Assembly: GCA_963835065.1 (NCBI GenBank)
Contig: CAWIEK010000022.1
Span: forward strand, 1 to 64,000
Origin: an uncultured Chthonomonadaceae bacterium
GTDB taxonomy: Bacteria > Armatimonadota > Chthonomonadetes > Chthonomonadales > Chthonomonadaceae
Length of the DNA stretch: 64,000 nt
Direction of reading: 5' to 3'
Shown here: one piece after another, positions 2,123 to 42,126 of the stretch
Layout of the letters: the number at the start of each line of letters is the position of its first letter
Position numbering within the stretch: position 1 is the stretch's first letter
The notes under the pieces: generated by a model
The model's database searches: none
What the model was told of the DNA's origin: nothing
The model's input: only the letters and a program-made list of their open reading frames with translations
Program-made: the position numbers and the translations under genes

Positions 2123-3428
2123 TTAGTCTATCGGCGTATCCGGCGCACCGAAGGGGATACGTTGCGGCACATTGGCAAGCCCTTGTAAGCCCGCAACCTG
2201 TACACTGTTGGGCCTGCGCTTGTTCAAGGCATCTATAATCTGCGTCAGGCGTTTCTCCTGCTCGTCATCGGTGAACAGCGAGAGGTTCCTATCCTCACAC
2301 TTGATGAGGCCGCTGAACACGATGCCCACTTGCGCGGGTTCTGCCGCAGGGGAAAGGTCAGGAATCGCCTCCAGTAAGGGCCTGACGACACGCAGCCACG
2401 TTGGTTCATCGTTGGCATGAAGATGCTTGCGGCTACCCCGTGTCCAGACGCCTTGCTGTGACCAGCCGAAGCGCTCTCCCCCGCCTTCCTGAGTGCGATG
2501 GTACTTGACCGTGATCTGTACGGCGCTGGCGACCTGATTGTACGCGCGGAGCCGTTTCAATGCCTTGTCACAGAGTTCCAGCAGGATACGCTCTGCTCCT
2601 TCCCGGCTCCGATATTCGGGCGCAAGAACGTTGGAGTGCCCGACGCTCTTGCGCGTGTCACTGCTCAACATCGGGCGATAGTCGGCTTCCTGACTGCCGC
2701 GCAGCATGAAGTACCAGCGTTCGCCTAACACGCTGCGCCATACCCGGCGCAAGTCGGCAGGTTCGGCTTCCCACAAGCTGCTCCACACTCACAATGCCGT
2801 ACTCGTGCAGACGCCGCTTCATAGCGGAGCCGATGCCCGGCAGGTCGGTGAGTTTCAAGGCAAAGAGGGCGTCGGGGAGATGCTCTCGTGTCCAGATGGT
2901 CAGGCCGTCGGGCTTCTGGCAGTCCGAGGCGACTTTCGCCAGAAACACATTGGGCGCAATGCCGACCGAGCAGCTGACATACGGCCCCAACTCACACGCG
3001 ATCTGCTCCTTGATGCGTTCGGCAAGGCGTTGTTCTTGCAGGAGCGTTTTGTAGAGCAGGGCCGGAACGCGGCAGGCCATTTCGTCAACACAGAGAACAC
3101 GGATAGTGGCGAAGTGTGCGTTGAGAATGTCCACAAGGCGCTGATGATAGGCAAGGTAGAGTTCAGGCCGCGCTTCCACAATTTGCAGGTTCGGGGCGGG
3201 GCGCGGGCAAGGGCTATGCTTGTTCCCGTCTTGATACCCAACCGCTTCGCTTCATAACTGGCGGCAATGGCGCAGGTATGTTCCGTCACAGATGGGAACA
3301 ACGATAACAGGCTTGTCGCGGTACTTTGCGCACTCCTGCTGTTCCACAGAAGCATAGAAGGCGTTCATATCCACAAAGAACCAGCGTGGCGTTCCGGCAG
3401 GCGCAACAAACGGAAATAGGCTTTCCAT
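2123..3428 (-). CDS. Y-family DNA polymerase (DinB/Pol IV-like); about 3 frameshifts, probably assembly indels
   Basis: Manual translation from the ATG at 3428 gives RWFFVDMNAFYASVEQ. Other frames give AIAASYEAKRLGIKTG, VLCVDE, SVGIAPNVFLAKVASDCQKPDGL, LTDLPGIG and RKSVGHS. Confidence 0.88.
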
Positions 3429-9537: not shown

Positions 9538-10532
9538 CTACGGGCTAACTGCTGTCTGCTTCTTGTTTACGAGCGTTTTGTATGTCAGCCGTTTACCGGG
9601 AATTTGCTGCACACCTTTTAGGAAGCGTGTCAAGTCAGTACCGTCACGGTTATTAAAACGGAATTTCAGTTCGTCAGCGTATCGGGAAAGATGTTCGGGT
9701 CGCAGTGCGTATACGTGCCATCAATCATGCGGTCTAGCAATGTCCAGACGTTTTCCACGCTGTTTGTATAGATTTTGCCGTCTACGTATTTAACGGCATG
9801 GTCTACTACTCCATGCTGATAGTTCTCACTTAGCCCCTCGTAACCTCTGTGTGCGTCTGTGTAGAGCGTAGACTTTTCTTCTACGGAGTTCTTAATCTCT
9901 GTTTGCAGAGTTTCGGCAGAGGTATCAGGCACAACCTGCAATCGGACTTTGCTGTATATCTTGTCTTTCGGGCGGCGTTGTTTGCCCATTTCGTTCTTAT
10001 GTCCGTTACCGCGCTGAACTACTCCGAATACGATTGTCTTACCTGCCGCGCCGCGTCCTTTGATTTTCTCTTTCTTTTTGGCGAAGTGCATATTCTTTGC
10101 TTTGCCGCCGACAAAGGTTTCATCGGCCTCAACTTCGCCTTTTAGTTTTTCGATGCTTTTCTGCTGAACAGCGAAGCGTAACCGATGGAGAACAAACCAA
10201 GCGGTTTTCTGTGGTATACCTAACGAACGTGCCAGTTCGCAAGAGGAAATACCATTTTTGGAGTTCGTCAACATCCAAAGTGCAATCAGCCATGTATCTA
10301 AGGCTAATTGGCTATCTTCAAAGATAGTGCCGACTTTGATAGAGAATTGTTTCTTGCAACCTTTGCAACGCCATATTTTGCGGGTTGCAATGAAGTGTGT
10401 TTCTGTATGCTGACAGCGCGGGCATACCACATTTCCGCCCCAACGCAGATTAACCAAAAAGTCAAAACAGCGTTGCGGATCGGCAAAATAGCGAATAACT
10501 TGAACTAACGTTTCGGGATACTGGTTTTCCAT
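9538..10532 (-). CDS. IS1595-family (ISXO2-like) DDE transposase; frameshift near 9690
   Basis: Zn ribbon CPRC...CKGC; motifs VEADETFVGG, YTDAHRGY, TNSVENVW. The second frame gives RYADELKFRFNNR...GKRLTYKTL. Confidence 0.93.
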
Positions 10533-11360: not shown

Positions 11361-12897
11361 ATGACCAACCGGTACAGGGAGGCGGAACACGACGCTCCGA
11401 ATTTCCAACCTGCAAACCCACATTCTCAAGCGTTTGCCCGCTACCAGAACGACCCGGCAGGTTATGCCCATGACATTCTCGGCGTTCACTGGTGGGAACG
11501 CCAACAGGAAGTCGCCCGCGCCCTGCTTCGGCATCGGCGCGTTTTTGTTAAAGCCAGTCACGGGGTGGGCAAGTCGTTTCTGGCGGGCGGGCTGGTGAAC
11601 TGGTTTTTTGACTGCTTCGATCCCGGCCTGTGTATCACGACTGCGCCCAACAGCAGGCAGGTGAAAGACATTTTGTGGAAGGAGATACGCGCCCAGCGCC
11701 CGCGACAGGCGCGAGAGGTGCTGCTGCCCCGGGCGTGCCGCATGGAAACCGATCCCGAACACGTGGCGGTGGGCTATACCGCCCGCAACGACAGCGGCTT
11801 TCAGGGCCGACATGCGGAACACGTCCTCATCGTTTTCGATGAAGCGACGGGGGTAGACGCGACGTTTTGGGATGCGGCGGAAGGCATGATGACGAGTCTG
11901 CACTGTTACTGGCTTGCCATTCTCAACCCGACGGACACGGCCAGCCGCGCTTATGAGGAGTGTCAGCGGAAGGGCAAATGGCATGTTATGGAAATCTCGG
12001 CGCTGGAGCATCCCAACATCGCGGCGGACCTGGCGGGAAAGCCGGCTCCCTATCCCCGCGCCGTGCGGCTGGAATGGGTACAGGGGCGCGTGCGCGAATG
12101 GTGTACTCCGGTGGGGGCGAGTGACAGACGGGCGGGGGATTTTCCGTTCCCGGCTGGCAGTGAAACGTGGTATCGCCCCGGCCCGCTGTTTGAAAGCCGC
12201 GTTTTGGGACGCTGGCCGACGCAGGGCAGTTTGGCCGTGTGGACCGAAGCCGTGTGGAACCTTTGTCTTGCGCGGCAGGTTCCCGGCCCAGTACGAACTT
12301 CTGGCGCTCGGCTGCGACAAAGCCCGGTTTGGCGACGATTTTACCAGTATCATTGTTCGGCGCGGCAATTGCGTTTTGCACCACGAAACGCACAACGGCT
12401 GGAACAACAACGAAATTGCGGGACGCTTAAAGCAGCTCTGCCGCCGCTTTGCGCTTGCCGGCGAAGACCCGCGCCGCGCTGTCGTTCGCATAGACGATGT
12501 GCAGGGCGCGGTTGTGGATTTGGCGGAGGGTTACAACTTTCAGGCCGTCAACAGCAGTCATCGCGCCAACGACGGAGCCGCGTTTCCCAACAAGCGCAGC
12601 GAATTGTGGTTTGAAACCGTTGACCGCGCGGGGGAGGGACGCCTGGACCTGACGCGCCTGAACGAAGAATCGCGCAATCTGCTGCGAACGCAGGCGATGT
12701 CGCCGACATGGAAAATAGACGCGCAGGGCCGGCGGGTCGTGGAACCCAAAGCGGACACGAAGAAGCGGTTGGGGCGTTCGCCGGATGATATGGATGCGCT
12801 GAACCTGGCGTTTTATGCGGGGGGTGATTGGAAGGAAGCGGCGGAGGCGACGGCTTTGCTGGTTGGGGCGTCGTTGGGCGGGGCGGGGGTTTGGTAG
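11361..12897 (+). CDS. Phage terminase large subunit-like ATPase-nuclease; frameshift near 12290
   Basis: WERQQEV Q-motif, Walker A ASHGVGKS, Walker B LIVFDEA, ILNP, nuclease motifs LGCDKARFGDD and SPDDMDAL; GAGGAGG RBS. Confidence 0.88.
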
Positions 12898-13137: not shown

Positions 13138-15363
13138 ATGCAATCCCGATGTTTGCTCATCGCGCTGGCCGGAGTGTGCCTGCTGCCCACAGCAGGTCGC
13201 GCCGACTCGCCCGAAGAACAGCTTGCCGCCGCGTCCGCTTTGTACGACGCGCATAGATACGATCAGGCCGCGCAGAAACTCGATGATTTTCTGGCGCAGA
13301 ACCCCAAACACGCCAAAATGGGCCTTGCCGCGTTCGTGCTGGGCCGCTGCCGCTCGGAATTAAAGCAATACCCTGCCGCTATTTCCGCGTACAGCAAGGC
13401 CGTTGCCAGCAAGGACAACGCTGTTTTGTCGCAGGCGGAACTCGGTTTGGCCGAAGCCGCCATGCAGACCAATGAGTACGACAAAGCCGCGAATGCGCTT
13501 CAGGACGCCGTAAAGGGACCACTGAAGCCGGAGCAGGCGGCAATCGCGTGGTACTGGCTTGGCGAGTCCGATTACAACCTGAAAAAGTACGGCGCGGCTC
13601 GTGACGCTTACGATCACGTTGTCAATGAGTTCGGTAAAACCGACCTGGCTCCGGGCGCGTTGTACGGCGCGGGAGTGTCGGCTTTGCAGGACGGCAAGCC
13701 CGACGACGCCAAGCTGCGCTTTCGCGCGCTGGCCGACAAGTACCCGCGCAGCAAGGAGCGGGGGCTGGCTTTGCTGTACATCCCGCAAATTGATCTGAGC
13801 AACAAAAATACGGTGAGCGCGCGGCAGGGATTTGAAGCCCTGCTCCATGACCAGGCCGCGCTGCAAATCACCCCGGCTCTGCGCCCCAAAGCCGAAGACG
13901 GCCTGATTCAATGCCTGCTGGAAGCCAAAGATTGGGAACACGCCGCCCCGCTTTTGGAAGTTGCTATGAGCCGGCAGGGGCAGGACGACCCGCAGAAGTA
14001 TCGCGCCGCCATGAGCCTGGGCAACGCCCGCTACCAACTGAAGCAGTATGACCGCGCCCTCAACGCCTATCAAATCGCCGCGCAGTCCAAAGAAGACAGC
14101 GTTGCGGCGCAGGGCTTGTACTGGTCGGCAAATGCGCAATTGGCTCTGAAGAAACCGGATGAGGCCGCGTCACAGTTCGGGCAATTGGTGTCGCGCTTCC
14201 CCAAAGACAAACTCGCCGCTAAAGCGCAGTTACGCGCCGGGGATGCCCTTGCCGACGCCAACAAGCCCAAAGAAGCCACCGTTGCCTATCAAGCCGTCGT
14301 AGACAAATTCCCGCAAGCGCCCGAAGCGGCGCAGGCGCGCAAGAATTTGGGTGACATGGTAGGCGCTCTGGACGATCCGGCGCAGATACTCGCCGCCATC
14401 AAAAACGCCACTCCCGAACAAAAGAATAAAGCGATGCTGCGCGTTGCCCGCCTGTATCTGACGGCGAAGAAAACGCCCGAAGCCATGACGGTTCTCAACG
14501 ACCTGGTGAAAGCCAACCCAACCGGCGACATCGGGGGGGAAGCGCAGTACCTGCTCGGACTGGCCTACGATTCGCAGCAAAAGTCCGCGCCCGCCGCAAG
14601 CGCCCTTGCCGAAGCCACGCGCCTGACGCCCCACGCGACATGGGCTTTGGACGCCGATACGCGCCTTGCCGAACTCTACCTTGACCTGAAACAGCCGGAC
14701 AAGGCCGAAAAAGCCGCCAGCGCCGCCCTCGACCTGAAGCCCGAAGAACAGGCGGGACAGCAAATCCGATTGACGCAAATTCAAGCGCAATTGGATCAAA
14801 AGAAGTGGGACGAGGCGTTCGCCAATTGCCAGACCGTTCTCGCCAATCATCCCAATGCGGAAACCACAGCGACGGCGCTGTACACCCAGGCCTGGGTCCG
14901 CGACAAACAAAACAAGCCCGAAGACGCGCTTCTTCTCTGGGACAAACTCGCCAGCGAGTATCCCAAAAGCGAGTATGCAGCCGAGGCCCTGCTGCGACTC
15001 GGAGACGCGCGCTCAAAGGCGGAAAAGTATGCCGAAGCCCAGGACAAATACTCGCAACTGCTCACCAATTTCCCGAATAACGCGCTCGCGCCCCAGGCCC
15101 GGTTCAAGCGGGGAAGCGCGCTGTTCAATTCTGGCAAACCGGAGGATGCGGCCGCTGATTTCCAGGCCGTCGCCGACGACAAAACGGCGGGCGCTTACCA
15201 ATCGGAAAGTCTTTATTGGGCGGGTGTCGCCCTTGATAAAGCGGGTAAAAAGGATCAGGCGATCCAACGGCTGACCGCATTGGTCACGCAGTACCCGACC
15301 CATGCCCGCGTTCCCAACGCCAAAATCCGTCTCGCCGCGCTCAAAGCGACGATTAACAACTAA
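13138..15363 (+). CDS. Exported multi-TPR protein (CpoB/BamD-like repeats)
   Basis: Signal peptide; repeated TPR pairs such as AWYWLGES...YDHVVNEF and AQLRAGDA...YQAVVDKFP. Confidence 0.9.
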   Translation: MQSRCLLIALAGVCLLPTAGRADSPEEQLAAASALYDAHRYDQAAQKLDDFLAQNPKHAKMGLAAFVLGRCRSELKQYPAAISAYSKAVASKDNAVLSQAELGLAEAAMQTNEYDKAANALQDAVKGPLKPEQAAIAWYWLGESDYNLKKYGAARDAYDHVVNEFGKTDLAPGALYGAGVSALQDGKPDDAKLRFRALADKYPRSKERGLALLYIPQIDLSNKNTVSARQGFEALLHDQAALQITPALRPKAEDGLIQCLLEAKDWEHAAPLLEVAMSRQGQDDPQKYRAAMSLGNARYQLKQYDRALNAYQIAAQSKEDSVAAQGLYWSANAQLALKKPDEAASQFGQLVSRFPKDKLAAKAQLRAGDALADANKPKEATVAYQAVVDKFPQAPEAAQARKNLGDMVGALDDPAQILAAIKNATPEQKNKAMLRVARLYLTAKKTPEAMTVLNDLVKANPTGDIGGEAQYLLGLAYDSQQKSAPAASALAEATRLTPHATWALDADTRLAELYLDLKQPDKAEKAASAALDLKPEEQAGQQIRLTQIQAQLDQKKWDEAFANCQTVLANHPNAETTATALYTQAWVRDKQNKPEDALLLWDKLASEYPKSEYAAEALLRLGDARSKAEKYAEAQDKYSQLLTNFPNNALAPQARFKRGSALFNSGKPEDAAADFQAVADDKTAGAYQSESLYWAGVALDKAGKKDQAIQRLTALVTQYPTHARVPNAKIRLAALKATINN
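13239..13288. repeat. 50 bp exact direct repeat, copy 2, inside the 5' part of the TPR gene
   Basis: Identical to 1387..1436. Confidence 0.95.
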
Positions 15364-27779: not shown

Positions 27780-28145
27780 GTGATGAAAACTGCTTTCCGT
27801 GAAACCCGCAACTTTACGGATGCTATCAACGACTATTTCGGCGGGGATGCGGCTTACTTTCCGCTTCAGAATTTTCTTGGAACGAACCCGGAACTTGGAG
27901 CCGTTATGCAGGGTACGGGAGGTCTGCGTAAATTGCGCTGGCCTGATCCCCGGCGCGGCAAAGGCAAACGCGGCGGGCTGCGTATCATCTATTTGTACAT
28001 TCCTGCCGCGCGTTTGATTGTGTTGCTTGATGTATATGATAAAGATGAGCAGGACGATCTTTCTACGGCGGACAAGAAAGCGTTTGCAATTTTGGCAGAG
28101 GCTATCCGGCAACAACTGACGGCAGAGGGAGGTTGGGAACGATGA
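27780..28145 (+). CDS. RelE/HigB-2-like type II toxin
   Basis: FRETRNF, NPELGAVMQGTGGLRKLRW, GKGKRGGLRIIY and YDKDEQDDLS. Confidence 0.88.
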   Translation: MMKTAFRETRNFTDAINDYFGGDAAYFPLQNFLGTNPELGAVMQGTGGLRKLRWPDPRRGKGKRGGLRIIYLYIPAARLIVLLDVYDKDEQDDLSTADKKAFAILAEAIRQQLTAEGGWER

Positions 28146-28489
28146 GTGAAAACAATTCGAGGATGCGCCCGCCGCTTGCCGAGCGTTTACGCGGGGCGCT
28201 GGAAGAAACATTGGCGTGGACACAGAATGAAGGCGAAGCGCGTGTCACGCTGTTGCAGGAAGATGGAAGTCGCGTGGGTCCAAAATCTATGACGCGGACA
28301 CAGTTCGAATTAGAACGCGCTGAGGAACCAACACCCCAACTCAACTCTGCAACCGAGGCGTATACGCTTATTCAGGAACTGCTTGCATGGACAGGCCGTG
28401 AACCCTCTTCAGAGGAAATAGATCAGGTAGACACCTTGCGGAAACGCGCCACAACTTTTTTGCAGCAGTCCGAGTCCATTGCTGTATAA
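28142..28489 (+). CDS. Probable antitoxin without a recognisable XRE HTH
   Basis: ATGA overlap with the toxin; the N-terminal LAERLRGALEETLAW resembles HigA2-type neutralising helices. Confidence 0.55.
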   Translation: MSENNSRMRPPLAERLRGALEETLAWTQNEGEARVTLLQEDGSRVGPKSMTRTQFELERAEEPTPQLNSATEAYTLIQELLAWTGREPSSEEIDQVDTLRKRATTFLQQSESIAV

Positions 28490-33769: not shown

Positions 33770-36700
33770 TTAGAGGGGACAGATCAGGAAGAAGGGACAG
33801 CGACTGCACTCCTGGCCGGGGTTCGGCGCGAAGCGTTTCTCGCGGATGCCTTTGAGCGCTTCATCGTACTTTGCCACGCGGGCGGGTTCCAGGTGCTTTT
33901 TTTCTTCCACTTCGCGCTGTTCGCCGTCCTGTAGATACCCAAGCACGATTTGTACGGGGAGGTCGGATTGCTGCCGGGCGGCGTGACGGGCAAGAGCAAG
34001 GCGTGGGTTGGTATGGTCCGAGTCGCCGCGCTGCGCCTTGTACGTGGTGAGGCGCCATTGGCCTTCGGCGGTTTCTTCAGCGTGGTCTACGCGCACCTGA
34101 ACCGCGCCATGCGCCAACTGCGCCGTCAGTTCCACGCCCCGCTTTTCTTCCGTTGCGCCCCCGACGTTGTGATGCCCTGCCGCCAGCATCCCCCGCGCTT
34201 TTGCCTGCAAAACCCGCGCATGAGCATTGTCGGGCGCATTGGGGCGCGTGTGCCAGGCTTGACGCAGTTTCTCATTGATATCTTCCGGTGTCGGCGTCCG
34301 GCCTTCCGCGCGTTCGGCTTGCAGCCAGGCAACGGTTTCCTGCAAGGTGTTGTGAAACGTCAGGTACGTGGTGTCCTCGCCACCCTGCGGCAATTTCAAC
34401 ACGCGCTGATAGTAATACTGGCGCGGACAGTTCCGATATTGCTCCACCGCCGAAGCGGAAAGCGTGAGCGGTTCTTCCTGTGGTTCCTCCATTATTGTAC
34501 TGCCGTTTTGCGTCACGTCCTGATTACTCGCCGCTTCCTGTGCCTGCGCTTCCGCCTCTACCCGCGCTTCTATCTCAGGGGAGTTGGAGAACGTGACCAC
34601 ATCGTTTTGCGGTCCTTCCTCTTTTATGTCGTCTTTCCAGTCCACATGCCGCGCGTTGCAGGCTTGCAGCGCGGCCTCGCACGAGGTAAGAAGGGCGCTT
34701 GGCGGTATAGGCTTTCCGTTCCACGTTGCCGGGCGCGACAGCACCAGCACATCCCGCGCCCGTGACAGGGCGACAAAAAACAGACACTCAGCCTCGCTGT
34801 TTTCCTCTTCCGCTTCACTCGGCTCACCCTGTTCCGTGTCTGAATCCGACGCATCCAGCCAGGAAGCGGGCGGCGACACCATACTTCCCATCTTGCCCAA
34901 CGGAAACTGCCCTTTTACTAAATTCGGCAGGTACACAATCGGGAATTCCAGCCCCTTGCTTTTGTGAACGGTCATCAGGCGGACACCATCCAGTTCGGCA
35001 TCGTCGCCCGATACGCGCAGGGCTTTTTCCTGTCCGCAACGCAGCAGAAACCGCAAGTGGTTCAGCAAGGCCGCCTGCTGATTCTCGTCCGCTTCAAACC
35101 GCGCTGCCAACCGCAATGTCACCATCAGCAGTTCATGGACGGCAAGCAATTTCTGCCGCCCCGCAACGGAGGAATCACGGAGCAGTGGCAGGAGGTAATC
35201 GCTCGTCTCAAACAAATACCCTGCCAGAAATGCCCACGCCGTGCCGTGATACAAATACGGTTCGATATGCCGGAATAACTTGAGCAGCGCGTTTTGTCCC
35301 TGCGCGGAAATGTCGGGCAGGTGGGCAGCCAATGTCAGCGCGGCGGGAAAGGTTTTGCGGCGTTCACGGGCGGCTTGCAGCAGCAGGGACACATCCTGCG
35401 CGGGAATATCATACTCGGCAAAACGGGCTACCCGCGCCAGCGCGGTTCCTTCCGGCTCACAGGCCAGCGACAGCAGGGCAAGCAAATCTTTGGTTTCTTC
35501 CCGGTCGAACAAGCCGCTTGCGTGTTGTGTCTCGATGCCGTTCGCGCCGAGCAGTTCGGCAAGGCGGCTTGCCTGCCGGTGCGTGTTGCACAAAATCACT
35601 TGATCGCGCAGTCCCACTCCCGCTTCTTCCGCCTGCCGGATATGCGCGGCCATGCCTGCCGCCTGCGCTTCCTCGTTGTCCGCGACGGCAACGGTCACGG
35701 CAGGCGTACCGGGCGCGTCTTGGGTTGCGGAAGGATCGGAGCGGTGTGGCTGCCAGTCGGCAAACGTCGCCGTCGCGCCTGCCATCGTGCCGGCATACGC
35801 GCCGAACATCGCCACGAGCGCAGGCCGCGAACGATAATTGCGCTCCAGTTGAATGCGCTGCCCACCCGGAAAATCCTCATCGAACTTGCGCACGTTTGCC
35901 GACGACGCGCCCCGAAAACGATAGATCGCCTGCCGCAAATCCCCTACCGCCCACAAACCGCGCCCATTCCCCGCCAATCGCTGCACCAGTTGAGCGCTCG
36001 CGCGGTTGATGTCCTGATACTCGTCGGCCAGAATATGCGGGTACTGCGCCTGCCACCGCGCCTTTACGTCCGGGCACGTATCCAGCAGTTCCACGCTGCG
36101 CATGATCAGGTCGCCAAAGTCGAGTTTGCCTTCTGCCTTTAGAAGCTTTTGATAGACGGCGTAAACATGCGCCACTTCCTGCGACTTTTCCGCGATTTCA
36201 AGGTGCTTTTCCACGTCCGCCTTTTTGGTGTAGCGCGATACGTCAGCAAGCTGCCGCTGCGCGACTAAGGCGTACTCCTGCGGCGTTTTCAGTTCATCCT
36301 TGGCGCGGGAAATACAGTCAAGAATGTCCGGGAACGGCAGAATGGGGAAGCTGAGGTACTCCAGGCGGCGCAGAGTCAGCCTGTCCATGTTGTCTTGCAG
36401 CAGTTTGATGGCGTCCGGCATGTCCAGCAGGTCGGGCGCGGCGGGAAGGCCAATGCGCGTACCCTCCTTGCGCAGCAGTTCCCTGCCGAACGCATGAAAC
36501 GTGCCGATCCAAACCCGGTCCGCCAGGTCGCCCACTTCGCCCCTGAGCCGAGTGTGCATTTCTTCCGCCGCTTTGTTGGAAAACGTCAGGGCAAGAATGT
36601 TTTCCGGCGCAACGCCCCGTTCCGTCAGCAGAAACAAAATCCGCGCAATCAGCGTCCGCGTTTTGCCCGTTCCCGGCCCCGCGTCCACCAGCACCGGCCC

Positions 36701-37469
36701 GTATTCGATATGGGCGGCGGCGCGTTGGCTGTCGTCGAGTTGAGGGTTGAGAGGAAAAGACAATGATGAGTGATGAGTGATGAGTGATGAATGGGAATTC
36801 AATTCATCACTCATCATTCCGCGTTCAGCATTGTCTTCTCCCCCTCTCCCCCTCTCCCCCTTTCCTTTTCTATTCCCCGTTCCCTGTCCCCTGTTCCCTA
36901 ACAAGAGCGCGCTTGCCAGTTGCGTGAGGACGCAGGAGAGGGACAGGCCGGAGTGGGCGGCGAAGCGGCTTGCTTTCCAGCGGTGTTCCAGAAACAGCTG
37001 ACGGAGAACGGGGCCGGGGAGCAGCAATTCCGCCGCGAACAGGTTGGCTTCGGATTCGCGGCGCTCCTTGCGGCTGTAGCCTTCGGCAAGCTGGGAGTTG
37101 GGCAGGCGGAATCCGGGCGCGGCGAAAGCGTCGGGGGTGTCTTCGGCAAAGCACTGGTCGTGGCCGATTTCGGGGTGAAGCCAGATAGTGCGCGAACTCA
37201 TGCGCCTGCGCAAACAACTGCCGCTCGCGCCGAACGGACGCGCCGCCCGCGTACCAGATGCCGGGTATGTCGCGGTCCAGCACGGCATGAGCGCCCGCCA
37301 GCAGGCCGTCACCCGGCGGCACGGATATTCGCGTTACATCCGTCGCTTCCTGCGCGGCTTCCAAAAGCATTTCGGCAGGCGGCAGCAAAGGCGCGTCTTC
37401 CGGGAGGAAGGCGCGCAATTGCAAATGCTGTTCGTAAGCGCGGCGGCGCAGGGCGTTCCAATCGGGCAT
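33770..37469 (-). CDS. Fusion of IrrE/ImmA-like metallopeptidase, UvrD/REP helicase and PD-(D/E)XK-like domain with Fe-S cysteines; frameshift near 37185
   Basis: N-terminus: RERQLFAQAHEFAH and ESEANLFAAELLLP. Helicase: AGPGTGKT, LTFSNKAA, ADEYQD, VGDLRQAIYRFRGA, NYRS, MTVHKSKGLEF, FVALSRA. C-terminus: LSASAVEQYRNCPRQY...CSRCPFFLIC. Confidence 0.9.
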
Positions 37470-37539
37470 GGCAGTCCTAAACAACTTTTCACGCGAAGAT
37501 AGTATAGTTTACCCGAACGGACGCGCGTTTGTTTTGGGG

Positions 37540-38196
37540 CTACGGTTGTTCCAGCCAGAACTGTTTTTGTTCCGCGTTCATGTCGGTGCAGGCGCGAACC
37601 GCCGCGTCGAAATCTTCCGCCTGACCAGCTTGCGGGACGCCATCCGATTTGTAACTGGCTCCCATTGCCAGCGTACTTGGACGCGCAAGATAAGCGCGTA
37701 CCTGCTCCGTGCCCGTATCGAGCGCCTGCGCCAGCCGATTGACCAATTCCTCCGGTATGGTGGACAGCCTAATCAACCGCTGTTGCAACTTGGCGACAAG
37801 AGGCAGCCCGACGCCGATTTGGGACGCCAGCGTTTTGGGCGTCAAGCCCTGCGCTTTGGCCGCTTGAATCAAATCTTCAAGAGCGGGGACGGGCGCGGGT
37901 TCCAGAGCGGCAAAATAGCGCGTCCGCATTTCAGCCACGACGCTGCGCCCGATTGCCAGCGTATGCGCTTCGCCTGCCGCATCCGGCGTCGCGGTTTCCA
38001 GGGCGCACTCCAGCGTGGGCGCGTCTGCCGCCCATCCGATGAGTTCGTCGGCAAACTGCGGGTAGCGGTTCAGCCAGGCGCGCAGGGATTGCGGCGTGGC
38101 GCTTTGCCGATCCTCGCTCCAGTCGGCAAACAAAATATCTATAGCGTTCTGCTGCCGCTCCATGTCGGCTTGATTATTTTGGTTCATCAGGATCAC
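37540..38196 (-). CDS. Hypothetical protein with a helical N-terminus and central HTH-like segment (candidate anti-sigma/repressor)
   Basis: LRAWLNRYPQFADEL, then AAKAQGLTPKTLASQIGVGLPLVAKL...LVNRLAQAL; lies between the sigma and peptidase-helicase genes. Confidence 0.7.
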   Translation of the reverse strand: MILMNQNNQADMERQQNAIDILFADWSEDRQSATPQSLRAWLNRYPQFADELIGWAADAPTLECALETATPDAAGEAHTLAIGRSVVAEMRTRYFAALEPAPVPALEDLIQAAKAQGLTPKTLASQIGVGLPLVAKLQQRLIRLSTIPEELVNRLAQALDTGTEQVRAYLARPSTLAMGASYKSDGVPQAGQAEDFDAAVRACTDMNAEQKQFWLEQP

Positions 38197-38494
38197 CCAT
38201 TGTCTTGCGAAAGACTACAAAAGAAAGGATTGTAGAGCCGCCTGCGCGGTGTATACCCAGGCTACTAGCCCGCGCGAAACCAAACCGGAAAGCAAAATTA
38301 AGAAACAGCTAAAAATAAAACCGCAAAGAAGCAAAGGAAGCAAAGAAAAAGCACACAAGAGAAGATATACCCACCTGGTAAACACTGATGAAATCGAAGC
38401 AAGAAAGTTTTATTGCGGTATTTGTAACTCGTCTGTAGGCGTTTTTCTTCTCTTCGCCTCTTTGCGTTCTTTGCTTCTTTGCGGTTCACTCCCC

Positions 38495-39265
38495 TCAATG
38501 CGTTTTCTCGGCTCGCCATTCTTCCAGGCGTTTTTGGGCGCGGGACAGGAGGTTGCGGACGGTGCGGTCTGTGACCTGCAGGGTTTCGGCGATCTGTTCC
38601 TGCGACCAGTCTTCGTAATGGTACAGGATAAAGGCTTTGCGTTCCGTATCGGGCAGGACGCGCAGGGCTTCGCGCACTTCCACGCGCTCGTGGGCGGACA
38701 GGCTTTCACTGTCGGCGGTACGCTCGAAGTAATCCGTCGTGTGGCCTTCCTCGTCTTCGATGGGCGGGGGCGCGAACTCGGCCTGCGCCATGCCGCGATA
38801 CTTTTGCACGATGTTGAGCAGCCGCCGTTTCAGGCACAGCCAGAAGCGCACTTCCCAGAACTCGCAGCCCCGGCTGTCATTGAACAGGTCTTGCAGCATC
38901 TGTACCTGTATGTCGCGCTTGCAGTCGTCCACATGCTGCGGCGACAGTTTCCAGCAGCTGACGTGCTGGTGAATAAAGCGGGCGCTGCGCTCGATAAGCA
39001 AGTCGGCGATCTGCCAGGCGTTTTCCTTGTCGGCGCGCTGCGAACTGCGCTGCCAGATGCGCAGCATACAGACAAGGGTTTCTTCCTGTACCCACTCCGG
39101 CGCTTTGCGATCCGGCAGGCGGGCATCGCGCCAAAAAACGCTTTGGGGCGCGCGCAGCAGGCGCTGTACCTGCGCTTCCACTTGCGGTTCGCGCGTTCGG
39201 CCTTCGGTTTGGAACCCGGCAAGCGCGTTCGGGGGGCTTGCTGTGGGCAATGTCTGCTCGGACAT
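38495..39265 (-). CDS. Sigma-70 family ECF-like sigma factor with an N-terminal extension
   Basis: Region 4: ALRVLPDTERKAFILYHYEDWSQEQIAETLQVTDRTVRNLLSRAQKRL; divergent region 2. Confidence 0.85.
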   Translation of the reverse strand: MSEQTLPTASPPNALAGFQTEGRTREPQVEAQVQRLLRAPQSVFWRDARLPDRKAPEWVQEETLVCMLRIWQRSSQRADKENAWQIADLLIERSARFIHQHVSCWKLSPQHVDDCKRDIQVQMLQDLFNDSRGCEFWEVRFWLCLKRRLLNIVQKYRGMAQAEFAPPPIEDEEGHTTDYFERTADSESLSAHERVEVREALRVLPDTERKAFILYHYEDWSQEQIAETLQVTDRTVRNLLSRAQKRLEEWRAEKTH

Positions 39266-39514
39266 GATTGACTCCGCCGGATGTTGAAAATTTGTCTTTT
39301 CGTCGGCTATCTGGGATAATAGACTATAGCAAAGCTGCGTTCGCGCCGTCGAATGGGAAGGAATTTGCAGGGTTATTGTACCCTGCGCGGCGCGGTTTTA
39401 GTTGATTTTTGTGCGCGTATTTTTTGTTTTTCCGGTTTTTGGTTCCGGCCTGTAGTTCGTTAATTGTGGGGTGAAATCCTGCCTGATAGTCTGGTGAAAT
39501 CGAGGAACATAACG

Positions 39515-39856
39515 ATGAACGAAATGGCTTATGATACGGAACTGACCGCCGGGGATGTGTACGATCAGTTGTGCGAACAGGTGGCGGCGGCGCGAACGCG
39601 GGCCTTAATGGGCGAACGCGCCGAAGCCCTGCGCCTGTTCCAAACGGCTTCGCTGGAATACGAGCGGTTCCGCGACGCGCTGCAAGGCTTGCCGCTTCAT
39701 GCGCTGGAACACGACTTTACAGTCACGCGCCAGATTTTGAGCGTGGATCGCTGCCTGTCGGAATTAGCGCCGGTTGGCCCGACGGAATTGGTTCCCGTTC
39801 TCGCGGCGGAACAGTCTCGCCCGCGCAGCCGCAAGCGTACCGCCAAAGCCGCTTAA
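39515..39856 (+). CDS. Hypothetical helical protein divergent from the sigma gene
   Basis: GAGGA RBS; clean ORF with GC-rich codon usage. Confidence 0.6.
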   Translation: MNEMAYDTELTAGDVYDQLCEQVAAARTRALMGERAEALRLFQTASLEYERFRDALQGLPLHALEHDFTVTRQILSVDRCLSELAPVGPTELVPVLAAEQSRPRSRKRTAKAA

Positions 39857-40008: not shown

Positions 40009-40063
40009 ATAGGTGTTCTGCCCGTCAATATAACAAATACTTTTCTTCAGAGTGGTAGTGTAT

Positions 40064-40744
40064 ATGAAGGTAGATGCTCGTAAACAAGCGTGCGTAATGA
40101 GAACAGAGAACGGCGCATCTATAGGCGAAATTGCCATAAGTCTGAGTGTTTCAAAAAGCACAGTTAGCCGTTGGGTTAAAGACATTTGCTTGACGGAAGA
40201 ACAGTTGCAAAAACTATCAGAACGTAATCCAATTTATAATAATCAAGTTCGTGGCAGTAATTGTTTGAAGCAAAGCAGTAAAGTTGTTCGGCAACAGTAT
40301 CAAGAGGAGGGGCGGCAACGTGCCCGACGCGCCAATCCACTGCATTTAGCTGGATGCATGCTGTATTGGGCTGAAGGTAGTAAAAGCCGCAACGTTCTGA
40401 CGTTCACGAATTCTGATCCTGATATGGTTTCGTTTTTCGTGCGCTTCCTTCGATGCTGTTATGATCTTACAGAAAGTGATATAACGGTTTGTGTAAACTG
40501 CTTTGATGATTGTCACTCTGCTGAAGACATTGAGCGGTTCTGGCTAGAAAAGTTGAGTTTGCCTGTTGAATGTTTGCGTAAAACAACACTGAACTACCAC
40601 TCAAGCTATTCACAAAAGAAGCGTTGCAATACGTTAGCTTATGGCACTTGCAGAATAAATGTTTGTCGAACTCACATAGTCCAGAGCATCTACGGCGCAC
40701 TTGCAGAGTACGTCGGCTTAGATGCAGCAAAATGGTTAGAATAG
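40064..40744 (+). CDS. HTH + LAGLIDADG-like domain protein directly upstream of tRNAs
   Basis: SIGEIAISLSVSKSTVSRW, then AGCMLYWAEGSK...FTNSDPDMVSFFVRFLR. Confidence 0.7.
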   Translation: MKVDARKQACVMRTENGASIGEIAISLSVSKSTVSRWVKDICLTEEQLQKLSERNPIYNNQVRGSNCLKQSSKVVRQQYQEEGRQRARRANPLHLAGCMLYWAEGSKSRNVLTFTNSDPDMVSFFVRFLRCCYDLTESDITVCVNCFDDCHSAEDIERFWLEKLSLPVECLRKTTLNYHSSYSQKKRCNTLAYGTCRINVCRTHIVQSIYGALAEYVGLDAAKWLE

Positions 40745-40753
40745 TTACACAGC

Positions 40754-40824
40754 GCGGGAGTAGCATAATGGTAATGCACTTGCCTTCCAAGCAAGCCACG
40801 CGGGTCCGATTCCCGTCTCCCGCT
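40754..40824 (+). tRNA. tRNA-Gly(TCC)
   Basis: Acceptor stem gcgggag/ctcccgc; anticodon arm cttgc-ctTCCaa-gcaag; atypical T-loop tccgatt. Confidence 0.88.
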
Positions 40825-40859
40825 TTTTCATTTACTTCGTTGTTTACTTATGTTTTTAC

Positions 40860-40933
40860 GCGCCCGTAGCTCAGTGGATCAGAGTATCCGGCTTCTACCC
40901 GGTTTGTCGGGGGTTCGAGTCCCTCCGGGCGCA
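40860..40933 (+). tRNA. tRNA-Arg(TCT)
   Basis: Acceptor stem gcgcccg/cgggcgc; anticodon loop ctTCTac; ggttcgag T-arm. Confidence 0.9.
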
Positions 40934-40946
40934 TTGAAGTTTTTTC

Positions 40947-40975
40947 TTGACAGATAGCGTAAATTATGGCATACT
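40947..40975 (+). promoter_or_regulatory. Sigma-70 promoter for tRNA-His
   Basis: TTGACA-N17-CATACT. Confidence 0.65.
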
Positions 40976-40987
40976 GTTGGTGTTTAT

Positions 40988-41062
40988 GGCGATTTTAGTT
41001 CAGTTGGTTAGAACGCCTGTTTGTGGAGCAGGAGGTCACCGGTTCAAATCCGGTAAGTCGCC
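40988..41062 (+). tRNA. tRNA-His(GTG)
   Basis: G-1/C73 pair; anticodon arm cctgt-ttGTGga-gcagg; ggttcaaatcc T-arm. Confidence 0.92.
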
Positions 41063-41091
41063 CTTATCTGTAAATTGTAAGTAAACGAGGC

Positions 41092-41478
41092 TTATAGTGA
41101 AAAACTATAAGCCTCGTTTGTTATGCGGTCTGTGGCGACATTTGCCATATCGTAATCAACCATGTTACGCTTACGTCGGCACGTATCAAAATAAGCAGCC
41201 AGCGCTGTCATACTGGACCCCATTGCCAGTTCGACAGCCTCAAAAGTGGTTTGATGATGCCCTATTCCGGTGACGCGGTAGCCTTTGCAGGCGAGAACCA
41301 TTTTGGCGATTTGCAGCACGGCGTTGTAGGCAGTGGCAAAGCGGCGGTCCGCGGAAAGATCGGGAATAACCGCATCCGCCAGATCACGCGCCACTACCGC
41401 CCGAAGCGCGGTCAGTTCCGCTAAACTGGTGACATGCGTTCTCACTTTTTTGTCGGCTAAGAGCTGTGACCAACTCAT
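41092..41478 (-). CDS. HEPN-domain toxin, possibly C-terminally truncated
   Basis: RRFATAYNAVL, GHHQTTF and CRRKRNMVDYD. Confidence 0.8.
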   Translation of the reverse strand: MSWSQLLADKKVRTHVTSLAELTALRAVVARDLADAVIPDLSADRRFATAYNAVLQIAKMVLACKGYRVTGIGHHQTTFEAVELAMGSSMTALAAYFDTCRRKRNMVDYDMANVATDRITNEAYSFSL

Positions 41479-42052
41479 CTTCGCTTCCTTTTAAGTAGAT
41501 TTTGGCTGCGTTCAAAACGGTGGTAACGAAGTGATTGCCTTCCTCCGCTTTATGCGCAAACTCCTGCCAGGTGAACAGCGTGGGATTGACCGGACGCCGC
41601 AGTTGCTTTTCCGCTTCACGTAAGGCCGGGGCTAACTCCACGAGGCGCAACTCTCCGATAAGCATCAGGTCAATGTCACTGGCGGACGTTTCCTCATTTC
41701 GCGCGAACGAGCCATAAACGAAGGCAAATTCCGTTTGCGTCCAATAAGGTTGAAGTATCTCCTGTAAAACGTCCGCAACACCAACGGTTTTTATAAGCAA
41801 CCCGCGCAGTTCCGGCAGTATAGGGCACTGAGCGTCGGGTTGGTAGTAAACCCTGTTGCCGTCCCGACGACTTACAAGTATGCCTGCTTCCACCAGGGAG
41901 AACAATTCCCGTTGCAAACTTGACGGCGTGACATGCAGATAATGCGTCAGGTCGCTCATGTACCACCAGCGCTCAGGATGCAAAATGGTGGCTGCAAGAA
42001 CAGATTGGCGCGTCTTCGGCATCAAACTATCCAAAAGGAGGGTTGTACGCAT
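41384..42052 (-). CDS. wHTH + minimal nucleotidyltransferase (MNT) antitoxin
   Basis: SSLQRELFSLVEAGIL (wHTH) and VYGSFARNEETSASDIDLMLIG (GS-x10-DxD). Confidence 0.88.
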   Translation of the reverse strand: MRTTLLLDSLMPKTRQSVLAATILHPERWWYMSDLTHYLHVTPSSLQRELFSLVEAGILVSRRDGNRVYYQPDAQCPILPELRGLLIKTVGVADVLQEILQPYWTQTEFAFVYGSFARNEETSASDIDLMLIGELRLVELAPALREAEKQLRRPVNPTLFTWQEFAHKAEEGNHFVTTVLNAAKIYLKGSEDELVTALSRQKSENACHQFSGTDRASGGSGA

Positions 42053-42082
42053 ATTGCGTACATTATTACGCAAATTGTGTAA
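42044..42082. promoter_or_regulatory. Tandem palindromic operators over the MNT start codon
   Basis: TGTACGCA-tat-TGCGTACA (perfect) followed by TTACGCA-aat-TGTGTAA. Confidence 0.65.
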
Positions 42083-42126
42083 AAGCGCAAGGTGAAGTTT
42101 ATACTTTTCACTCACTTCTGATGGCT

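Follow-up and report, generated by a model that had tools for sequence, protein, structure and literature searches.

A Putative Sigma Factor Switch with a Peptidase-Helicase Fusion Protein in Armatimonadota

A stretch of 64,000 nucleotides from an uncultured Chthonomonadaceae bacterium (assembly GCA_963835065.1, contig CAWIEK010000022.1, positions 1 to 64,000; hereafter the window) contains a cassette of three co-oriented genes on the minus strand. They encode a sigma factor (39265-38495), a partner protein (38196-37540) and a fusion of a zinc peptidase with a helicase and a nuclease-like domain (37469-33770; coordinates of the window's open reading frames, ORFs). The three genes probably form a cytoplasmic switch for repair and defense genes, made up of a sigma factor, its anti-sigma factor and a sensor protease. 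An earlier reading of this DNA, made from the sequence alone, had pointed out the gene triplet and its sequence motifs and had named the protein families to be expected; the genes and all of the quoted motifs are indeed there, and profiles for Peptidase_M78, UvrD, PDDEXK_1 and Sigma70_r4 were all matched above cut-offs or, for the last, as Sigma70_r4_2.

Results

The Partner Is a Predicted Anti-Sigma Factor

The sigma factor (256 amino acids) is a sigma-70 factor resembling those of the extracytoplasmic function (ECF) group, with an N-terminal extension of about 80 residues followed by regions sigma2 and sigma4. It matches Sigma70_r4_2 in Pfam and scores above the cut-off of TIGR02937 (sigma70-ECF), and a profile of its family aligns with AlgU/RpoE across positions 82-247, which yields the sigma2 + sigma4 architecture and sets off the extra 80 residues at the N-terminus. 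The partner (218 amino acids) is modeled with a mean predicted local distance difference test score (pLDDT) of 93 as an N-terminal helical domain, a helix-turn-helix (HTH), a coil and two short helices. Models and alignment place the predicted sigma-binding domain at residues 10-98 and an XRE-like HTH at about residues 105-170, ahead of a conserved loop and the C-terminal helices.

The two proteins are predicted to bind each other. The complex scored 0.83, the best of three controls 0.00; the mark for this score is reached by 116 of 157 solved complexes and by 2 of 215 mismatched pairs, a calibration that holds roughly, our own alignments having been used. Contacts agreed between runs to at least 98%, with a pLDDT of at least 84 for the partner. 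Its residues 10-98 contact mainly residues 77-150 and 194-229 of the sigma factor, which correspond to sigma2 and sigma4 in the alignment to AlgU/RpoE, and the predicted interface includes the helix by which ECF sigma factors bind core polymerase. The modeling, which the sequence-only reading had called for, supports a partner that acts as an anti-sigma factor, clasping sigma regions 2 and 4; of the two roles considered there, anti-sigma factor or repressor, it favors the former. Sequence searches of PDB and Pfam with the sigma-binding domain gave no match, and it resembles none of the anti-sigma families tested; a likeness to class I anti-sigma domains is possible. The central HTH, which follows a 100-residue N-terminal domain, matches CapH, SinR and DdrO weakly (E 0.03-0.2); Foldseek matched the HTH alone, and in Pfam there was only a weak hit to HTH_31 (E 0.03).

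Behind the HTH, the coil carries the motif A-x-[YF]-[RK]-[AS]-x-x-x-P, with Y/F in 98% and R/K in 92% of 166 homologs, among which the C-terminal helices are conserved as well. According to the covered parts of the respective reports, CapP cuts CapH at F82|R83 upon stimulation with single-stranded DNA (ssDNA; bioRxiv 10.1101/2022.04.27.489752), and PprI binds ssDNA and cuts DdrO within a loop (PMC10904395). By analogy with these cuts, and given its conservation and its place in the model, the pair Tyr182-Lys183 of the A-x-[YF]-[RK] loop (37648..37653, minus strand) is a candidate cleavage site, and the partner would be cut at Y182|K183, in the loop behind the HTH.

The Fusion Combines a Peptidase and a Motor with a Degenerate Nuclease

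The long frame of the fusion matches Peptidase_M78 (PF06114), UvrD-helicase, UvrD_C and PDDEXK_1, each above the Pfam cut-off. A 5' piece (37185..37469, minus strand) covers the first half of the zinc peptidase (M78) and includes AHEFAH at 37205-37188; the main frame (33770..37186, minus strand) encodes the remaining peptidase (E-x-EAN-x-FA), a UvrD motor of superfamily 1A (SF1A, about 36736-34736) and, at the C-terminus (about 34465-33776), a degenerate PD-(D/E)XK domain with four cysteines. Among 30 intact homologs of the fusion, HExxH, Walker A and Walker B are each found in 30 and the four cysteines in 29; the third zinc ligand, a glutamate, is present and the E..A..FA motif conserved. The nuclease motif [DE][YFW]K occurs in one of the 30 and is lost in the other 29; the window copy has TYK, and the degeneracy suspected earlier for this single copy is shared by nearly all of these homologs. 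An active protease and motor joined to a dead nuclease would fit a sensor role. The lone homolog with an intact DYK (L036 of genome G032) belongs to the same genus as the window.

An intact homolog of the fusion was modeled with a pLDDT of 87 and a predicted template modeling score of 0.88, and the top Foldseek matches of this model were UvrD/PcrA, AddA and AdnA/B; the fusion scores far under the AddA cut-offs. Neither Pfam nor the fold search found a GAF domain, the peptidase being followed by UvrD and PDDEXK_1 instead, and a single-sequence search of solved structures with the peptidase domain gave no match. PADLOC 2.0 returned only generic GajB/DRT helicase models for the fusion and no match for the partner.

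In the window, the fusion gene is split by one extra base at 37184..37185, right behind AHEFAHY, which confirms the indel suspected earlier at about 37185. The base is missing from the contigs of two close relatives, one from each of two studies (96% and 92% alike; depth 5.4 and 2). Peptidase and helicase share one frame in 31 of the 32 class loci with an adjacent fusion, the exception (L041) having many broken genes; as relatives carry both in one frame, the idea of two separate genes was rejected. Further frame-split genes in the window's genome are recA (G000:C54:62220-63177, L138) and a gene on C71 near 20296, which suggests indel errors in the assembly; altogether, 3 of 28 distinct conserved genes tested there are split, recA included. 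The break is thus most likely an assembly error, although it may reflect a recent inactivation of the fusion in this strain. In-frame low-complexity repeats of a heptamer type (36756..36900), where the depth of metagenome contigs is very high, lengthen the linker between peptidase and helicase.

The Three Genes Co-occur across Genomes

Within the window's class, the fusion N-terminus was found at one place each in 57 of 68 genomes. The partner was found in 55 of the 68 and, by profile, in one more (G012), so that 56 of the 57 fusion genomes hold it; the single genome with a fusion but no partner is 64% complete, and the 11 fusion-less genomes likewise lack the partner. Five well-assembled negatives contain only generic ECF sigma factors of at most 62 bits, as compared to 127-222 bits for 18 of 20 held-out cassette sigma factors. 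The sigma gene adjoins the partner gene in 39 of 40 class loci, and the fusion is adjacent in 32, the other eight genomes carrying it elsewhere. In 20 loci from other families, sigma factor and partner stand together in all 20 and the fusion joins them in 17. The gene neighborhood, whose conservation had been proposed as a check of the sequence-only reading, is conserved in loci of the class and of other families.

A phylum-wide search with the partner profile matched 99 of 401 genomes, mostly in four families; this is an under-count, as three of five supposed negatives in a within-genus control in family f29 hold the fusion. Searching for related loci with the partner alone gave one true relative (L031) and four weak matches, which family profiles did not confirm. 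The partner family as a whole comprises 1,764 clusters at 50% identity; the partner's clusters in the Atlas are unnamed. Beyond the phylum, matches over at least 80% of the fusion come from 28 plasmid records. In all four plasmid loci read, the order of the three genes is retained, and ubiquitin-like (Ubl), E2-like or JAB, and E1 genes come next; on such rhizobial plasmids, the cassette would be wired locally to the ubiquitin-like operon. An operon of this kind lies beside the cassette in only 1 of 60 loci of the phylum, and the window genome gave no match to Ubl, E2 or JAB queries.

Two genomic arrangements deserve separate mention. G234 has two copies (L226/L243), one a full cassette ahead of a Ubl-E2-JAB-E1 operon, the other a sigma-partner pair without an adjacent fusion. 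At L065 and L068 (G049, G051), extra partner paralogs lie between partner and fusion, one of them without most of the N-terminal domain.

A Promoter-like Motif Accompanies the Cassette

In 32 class loci, the pattern TTCCG-Nn-AGT upstream of the sigma gene has n = 19 in 29 cases and n = 20 in 9; no other value between 12 and 24 is seen more than 4 times, and the pattern often runs in both directions. A matrix trained on the 29 sites with n = 19 found 40 sites scoring at least 18 at this spacer in the window genome, versus 8-17 at eight other spacers. The best site of the whole genome (score 25.9; 38260..38294, minus strand), a TTTCCG...AGT with a 19-base spacer and a counterpart in L031, stands before partner and fusion and is the predicted promoter of the cassette sigma factor. 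A second predicted promoter of the same type (score 21.8; 39426..39460, plus strand) precedes a small divergent gene; in the window, the bipartite promoter thus lies ahead of the partner gene and the divergent gene, not of the sigma gene. A further strong site (score 21.7; 14993-15028, minus strand) is followed by no clear gene.

Just upstream of the sigma gene, the motif, TTTCCG-N19/20-AGT, was recovered in 15 of 20 held-out loci and in three of four plasmid loci, where the TTCCG half was also seen by eye in the gap before the ubiquitin-like gene in all four. With five incomplete genomes set aside, the exact pattern has 346 matches (control: 104) in 57 cassette genomes, and 9 (control: 12) in six cassette-less ones.

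The Candidate Regulon Contains Repair and Defense Genes

For orthologs of selected genes, we searched 900 bases upstream for sites scoring at least 14, among the 30 best matches of each gene and the negatives, leaving out genomes of uncertain status and regions shorter than 300 bases. The motif precedes ssb in 22 of 27 cassette genomes and recA in 12 of 27, versus none of five cassette-less genomes in either case; controls gave 1 of 78 on the reverse strand and 10 of 78 with shifted spacers. As a conserved regulon member, polA was rejected (0 of 24 other cassette genomes, 0 of 6 cassette-less).

In the window genome, where 40 regions were read and 75 of their 82 ORFs scanned, 29 sites score at least 20. 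Downstream of these lie genes for SRAP, polA, ssb, gyrA, WGR-PARP and NADAR proteins, but also for RNase Y, glyoxalases, DUF899 and Uma2 proteins and many ORFs without annotation; two lower-scoring sites, those of recA (16.9) and ybaB-recR (16.4), were hand-picked. In relatives, 40 pattern hits were read (16 of 18 in G002, 9 of 10 in G006, 14 of 16 in G024 and a hand-picked 1 of 6 in G025), hits at the cassette and the recA operon being left out and 49 of 60 ORFs scanned. Seven of the 40 precede repair-type genes (ligA, ruvB, recQ, SRAP, dinD, an ADP-ribosylglycohydrolase and an exonuclease-endonuclease-phosphatase) and nine defense-type genes (two Dcm, a BglII-type pair, HsdR, Cas3, two ResIII/SNF2, AAA_21 + DUF4276 and a RelE toxin); RhuM follows in three cases and a glyoxalase/bleomycin-resistance fold in three others, the third of these by likeness. 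In family f29, 9 of 15 scanned ORFs behind the motif have a Pfam family, among them two RecJ-like DHH proteins, two DEAD-box helicases and DndB; the others of the nine are HD with S24, REase-ARP, Cas6 and a Dam-type methylase.

Some of the preceded proteins carry no family name. One unnamed family, 51-59% identical, stands behind the motif in three genomes (L255:1586-2170, L277:488-1117, L280:110-940; phrog_27776, phrog_11717), and a second protein without a name is found behind it in the window genome, G000 (L119:176-940; phrog_22961); neither matched Pfam. Both resemble Rad52/Sak-type annealing proteins. Motif-carrying ortholog pairs from two genomes each (L259/L282, L113/L250 and L121/L262) comprise two unnamed families and a glyoxalase/bleomycin-resistance fold.

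Other Features of the Window

The divergent gene next to the cassette (39515..39856, plus strand) encodes 113 amino acids, belongs to no known family (Atlas score <0.9) and adjoins the sigma gene in 11 of 40 class loci; it is likely a member of the regulon. Purine-rich repeats of about 200 bases (38294-38498) lie between the sigma gene and the internal promoter and are skipped in relatives' contigs. An HTH gene followed by tRNA-Gly, tRNA-Arg and tRNA-His (40052-41063) is located 0.8-1.8 kb upstream of the cassette. Farther away, overlapping ORFs at 2123-3355 resemble a split Y-family polymerase of the DinB/ImuB type, and a low-GC stretch contains a transposase-like ORF (9666-10532) and a terminase-like gene spread across two frames (11361-12897). 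Two small gene pairs without a Pfam match at 1e-7 resemble toxin-antitoxin modules of the RelE/HigB type (27780-28489) and the nucleotidyltransferase + HEPN type (41092-42115).

Discussion

How might such a switch operate? At rest, the partner is predicted to block the sigma factor by binding sigma2 and sigma4. The AdnAB/AddAB-like motor and the iron-sulfur domain of the fusion would sense ssDNA or DNA ends, and loading of the helicase on damaged or foreign DNA would switch on the fused M78 protease, which would then cut the partner at [YF]|[RK] behind the HTH. The cut would destabilize the anti-sigma factor, which would either lose its C-terminal module or become exposed to general proteases, and the freed sigma factor would read TTTCCG...AGT promoters, those of its own inhibitor and sensor included. 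As the genome's best site stands before partner and fusion, negative feedback would follow.

Several observations weigh against this scheme. The predicted interface with the sigma factor excludes the candidate cut site, so that a cut at residue 182 would need an extra step to free the sigma factor, and the conserved HTH of the partner has no role in the simple model. In the window, no site scoring at least 13 points towards the sigma gene itself, and the motif before polA is confined to the window genome, with none in 24 other cassette genomes. Several cassette genomes of the class have no or only one exact match (e.g. G035, G048, G050, G016, G017), and the cassette-less genomes used for comparison are few (six), kin not being independent. 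Many motif hits precede genes without a repair or defense annotation, and the counts stand without a random-gene baseline. In family f29, moreover, none of 10 genomes, eight of which hold the fusion, has the motif before ssb, and the loose pattern is as frequent as its control (37 versus 37 in five cassette genomes). As ssb of f29 lacks the motif, its loose pattern is not enriched and some genomes have no exact match, the predicted regulon is lineage-specific in content, with ssb and recA being typical of the window's class.

Could the fusion be an output of the switch rather than its trigger? The sigma/anti-sigma pair would then be real, but the fusion would serve the regulon as an effector (a repair helicase, or a protease that clears proteins off DNA) and would not cut the partner, and another signal would free the sigma factor. 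This would suit the position of the genome's best promoter site, which drives partner and fusion, the 8 of 40 loci in which the fusion is unlinked from sigma factor and partner, and the SRAP peptidase in the regulon. We nevertheless consider it unlikely: co-occurrence in single copy persists even when the genes are unlinked, M78 peptidases of known function cut XRE-type partners, and a [YF][RK] pair persists in the partner, where a flexible loop follows the HTH.

Less probable still is a partner that acts mainly as a DNA-binding repressor or tether in the manner of CapH and DdrO, keeping the sigma factor at operators until cleavage lifts repression or hands it to RNA polymerase. Its conserved XRE-like HTH, with weak fold matches to CapH, SinR and DdrO, would be at home in such a role, and the conserved C-terminal helices could dimerize. 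However, the only motif seen upstream has a bipartite, directional form rather than a palindromic one (palindromes were not searched for systematically), and the predicted interface covers sigma2 helices that bind core polymerase in ECF sigma factors.

That the cassette is a self-contained anti-phage system, with the fusion as both sensor and killer, appears very unlikely. It does lie beside ubiquitin-like operons on conjugative plasmids, and restriction and CRISPR genes carry the motif; but it is present in single copy in 57 of 68 genomes of the class, unlike patchy defense systems, a ubiquitin-like operon accompanies it at just one of the 60 phylum loci, PADLOC recognizes only generic helicase models, and 29 of 30 homologs have lost the nuclease motif. 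Of the two functions weighed in the sequence-only reading, a damage response or an anti-phage system, the second seems not to apply as a stand-alone system in this lineage, where the cassette looks like a chromosomal global regulator. Finally, there is a slim chance that another regulator reads the TTTCCG...AGT motif and the cassette is just one of its targets. In favor, these genomes have many further ECF sigma factors, and the link between the motif and the cassette sigma factor comes from sequence comparison; against it, ssb and recA lack the motif in cassette-less genomes, and the upstream half of the motif accompanies the cassette on alphaproteobacterial plasmids.

Whether the sigma/anti-sigma/sensor-protease switch amounts to a second, sigma-based response to DNA damage is, to our judgment, evenly balanced. 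A helicase-activated protease would destroy an anti-sigma factor of a new class, and the regulon would join repair (ssb, recA, ligA, ruvB, recQ, recJ-like, SRAP, PARP/NADAR) with both innate and adaptive defense (restriction-modification, CRISPR, ubiquitin-like operons); the system would be fixed in the chromosomes of several Armatimonadota families and mobile in other phyla as a controller of immune operons. It would run in parallel to the SOS response, not in its place, which qualifies the earlier proposal of a RecA/LexA-independent response: lexA occurs in the window genome and, within the two main families, in 30 of 31 and 21 of 21 genomes, so that the cassette as a replacement of LexA was rejected. 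The window genome also has a separate UvrD/PcrA-like gene. If true, the scheme would link repair and immunity in one regulon, could explain the control of some Bil/Bub-type operons and would offer an orthogonal DNA-damage-inducible promoter. With its three proteins, a predicted binding interface, a candidate site for the cut and a defined promoter, it can be tested directly.

To our knowledge, DNA-damage switches either repress, like LexA, DdrO, CapH, CapS and CapW, or activate the housekeeping polymerase, like PafBC and DriD, and the literature covered contained no damage switch in which a helicase-coupled protease frees an alternative sigma factor. Nor was a description of the cassette found in this literature, which includes few subscription papers; the supplements of PMC7826278, PMC13373217 and two Bub preprints lie outside the search and may list it. 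To this extent, the architecture is uncharacterized, as previously supposed. The novelty lies in the wiring, all parts being from known families, and on a strict view the system is a hybrid variant of the IrrE/DdrO and ECF/anti-sigma switches.

Pairs of ECF sigma and anti-sigma factors that are separated by regulated proteolysis include RpoE-RseA, AlgU-MucA and SigW-RsiW. Like these, the cassette has a sigma factor of regions sigma2 and sigma4, a co-encoded partner predicted to clasp both, and its own promoter by the operon; unlike in the known pairs, the anti-sigma factor is soluble and bears an HTH, and the protease would be a DNA-sensing helicase fusion. The main text of the ECF reclassification paper has no mention of helicase, UvrD, IrrE or M78 (PMC7826278). 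The fusion itself shares with AdnAB/AddAB the SF1A motor and a C-terminal PD-(D/E)XK domain with four cysteines, but it is a single chain, has lost the nuclease motif and has gained an N-terminal peptidase.

On the input side, DNA-damage-responsive control of adjacent immune operons is known from CapK + CapS and from CapW, which use kinase or WYL sensors and repressors; their paper gave no hit for 'helicase' (PMC13373217). Closer is IrrE/PprI + DdrO of Deinococcus, as far as the covered part of its report describes it, likewise a chromosomal M78 protease switch that exists alongside LexA and governs repair genes such as recA (PMC10904395). DdrO, however, is a repressor with an operator motif where the cassette has a sigma/anti-sigma pair and a -35/-10-like motif, and PprI, by the same partial source, lacks a helicase. 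With CapP + CapH, as portrayed in the sections covered, the cassette shares an HExxH M78 peptidase beside an XRE-HTH protein (here XRE-like), an aromatic|basic site behind the HTH (here a candidate) and a location upstream of ubiquitin-like operons on mobile DNA (bioRxiv 10.1101/2022.04.27.489752). Compared to the CapP and CapH of those sections, the fusion has no GAF domain, and its peptidase is joined to a UvrD motor and an iron-sulfur nuclease that is dead; the partner carries an additional domain at its N-terminus, by which it is predicted to bind a sigma factor, and the output would come from a dedicated sigma factor that activates at a directional promoter, often genome-wide. Lacking a GAF domain and having a sigma factor as output, the cassette falls outside the IrrE/CapP kind, and its partner matches none of the tested anti-sigma families; the cassette resembles IrrE/DdrO and CapP/CapH at its input and an ECF/anti-sigma pair at its output.

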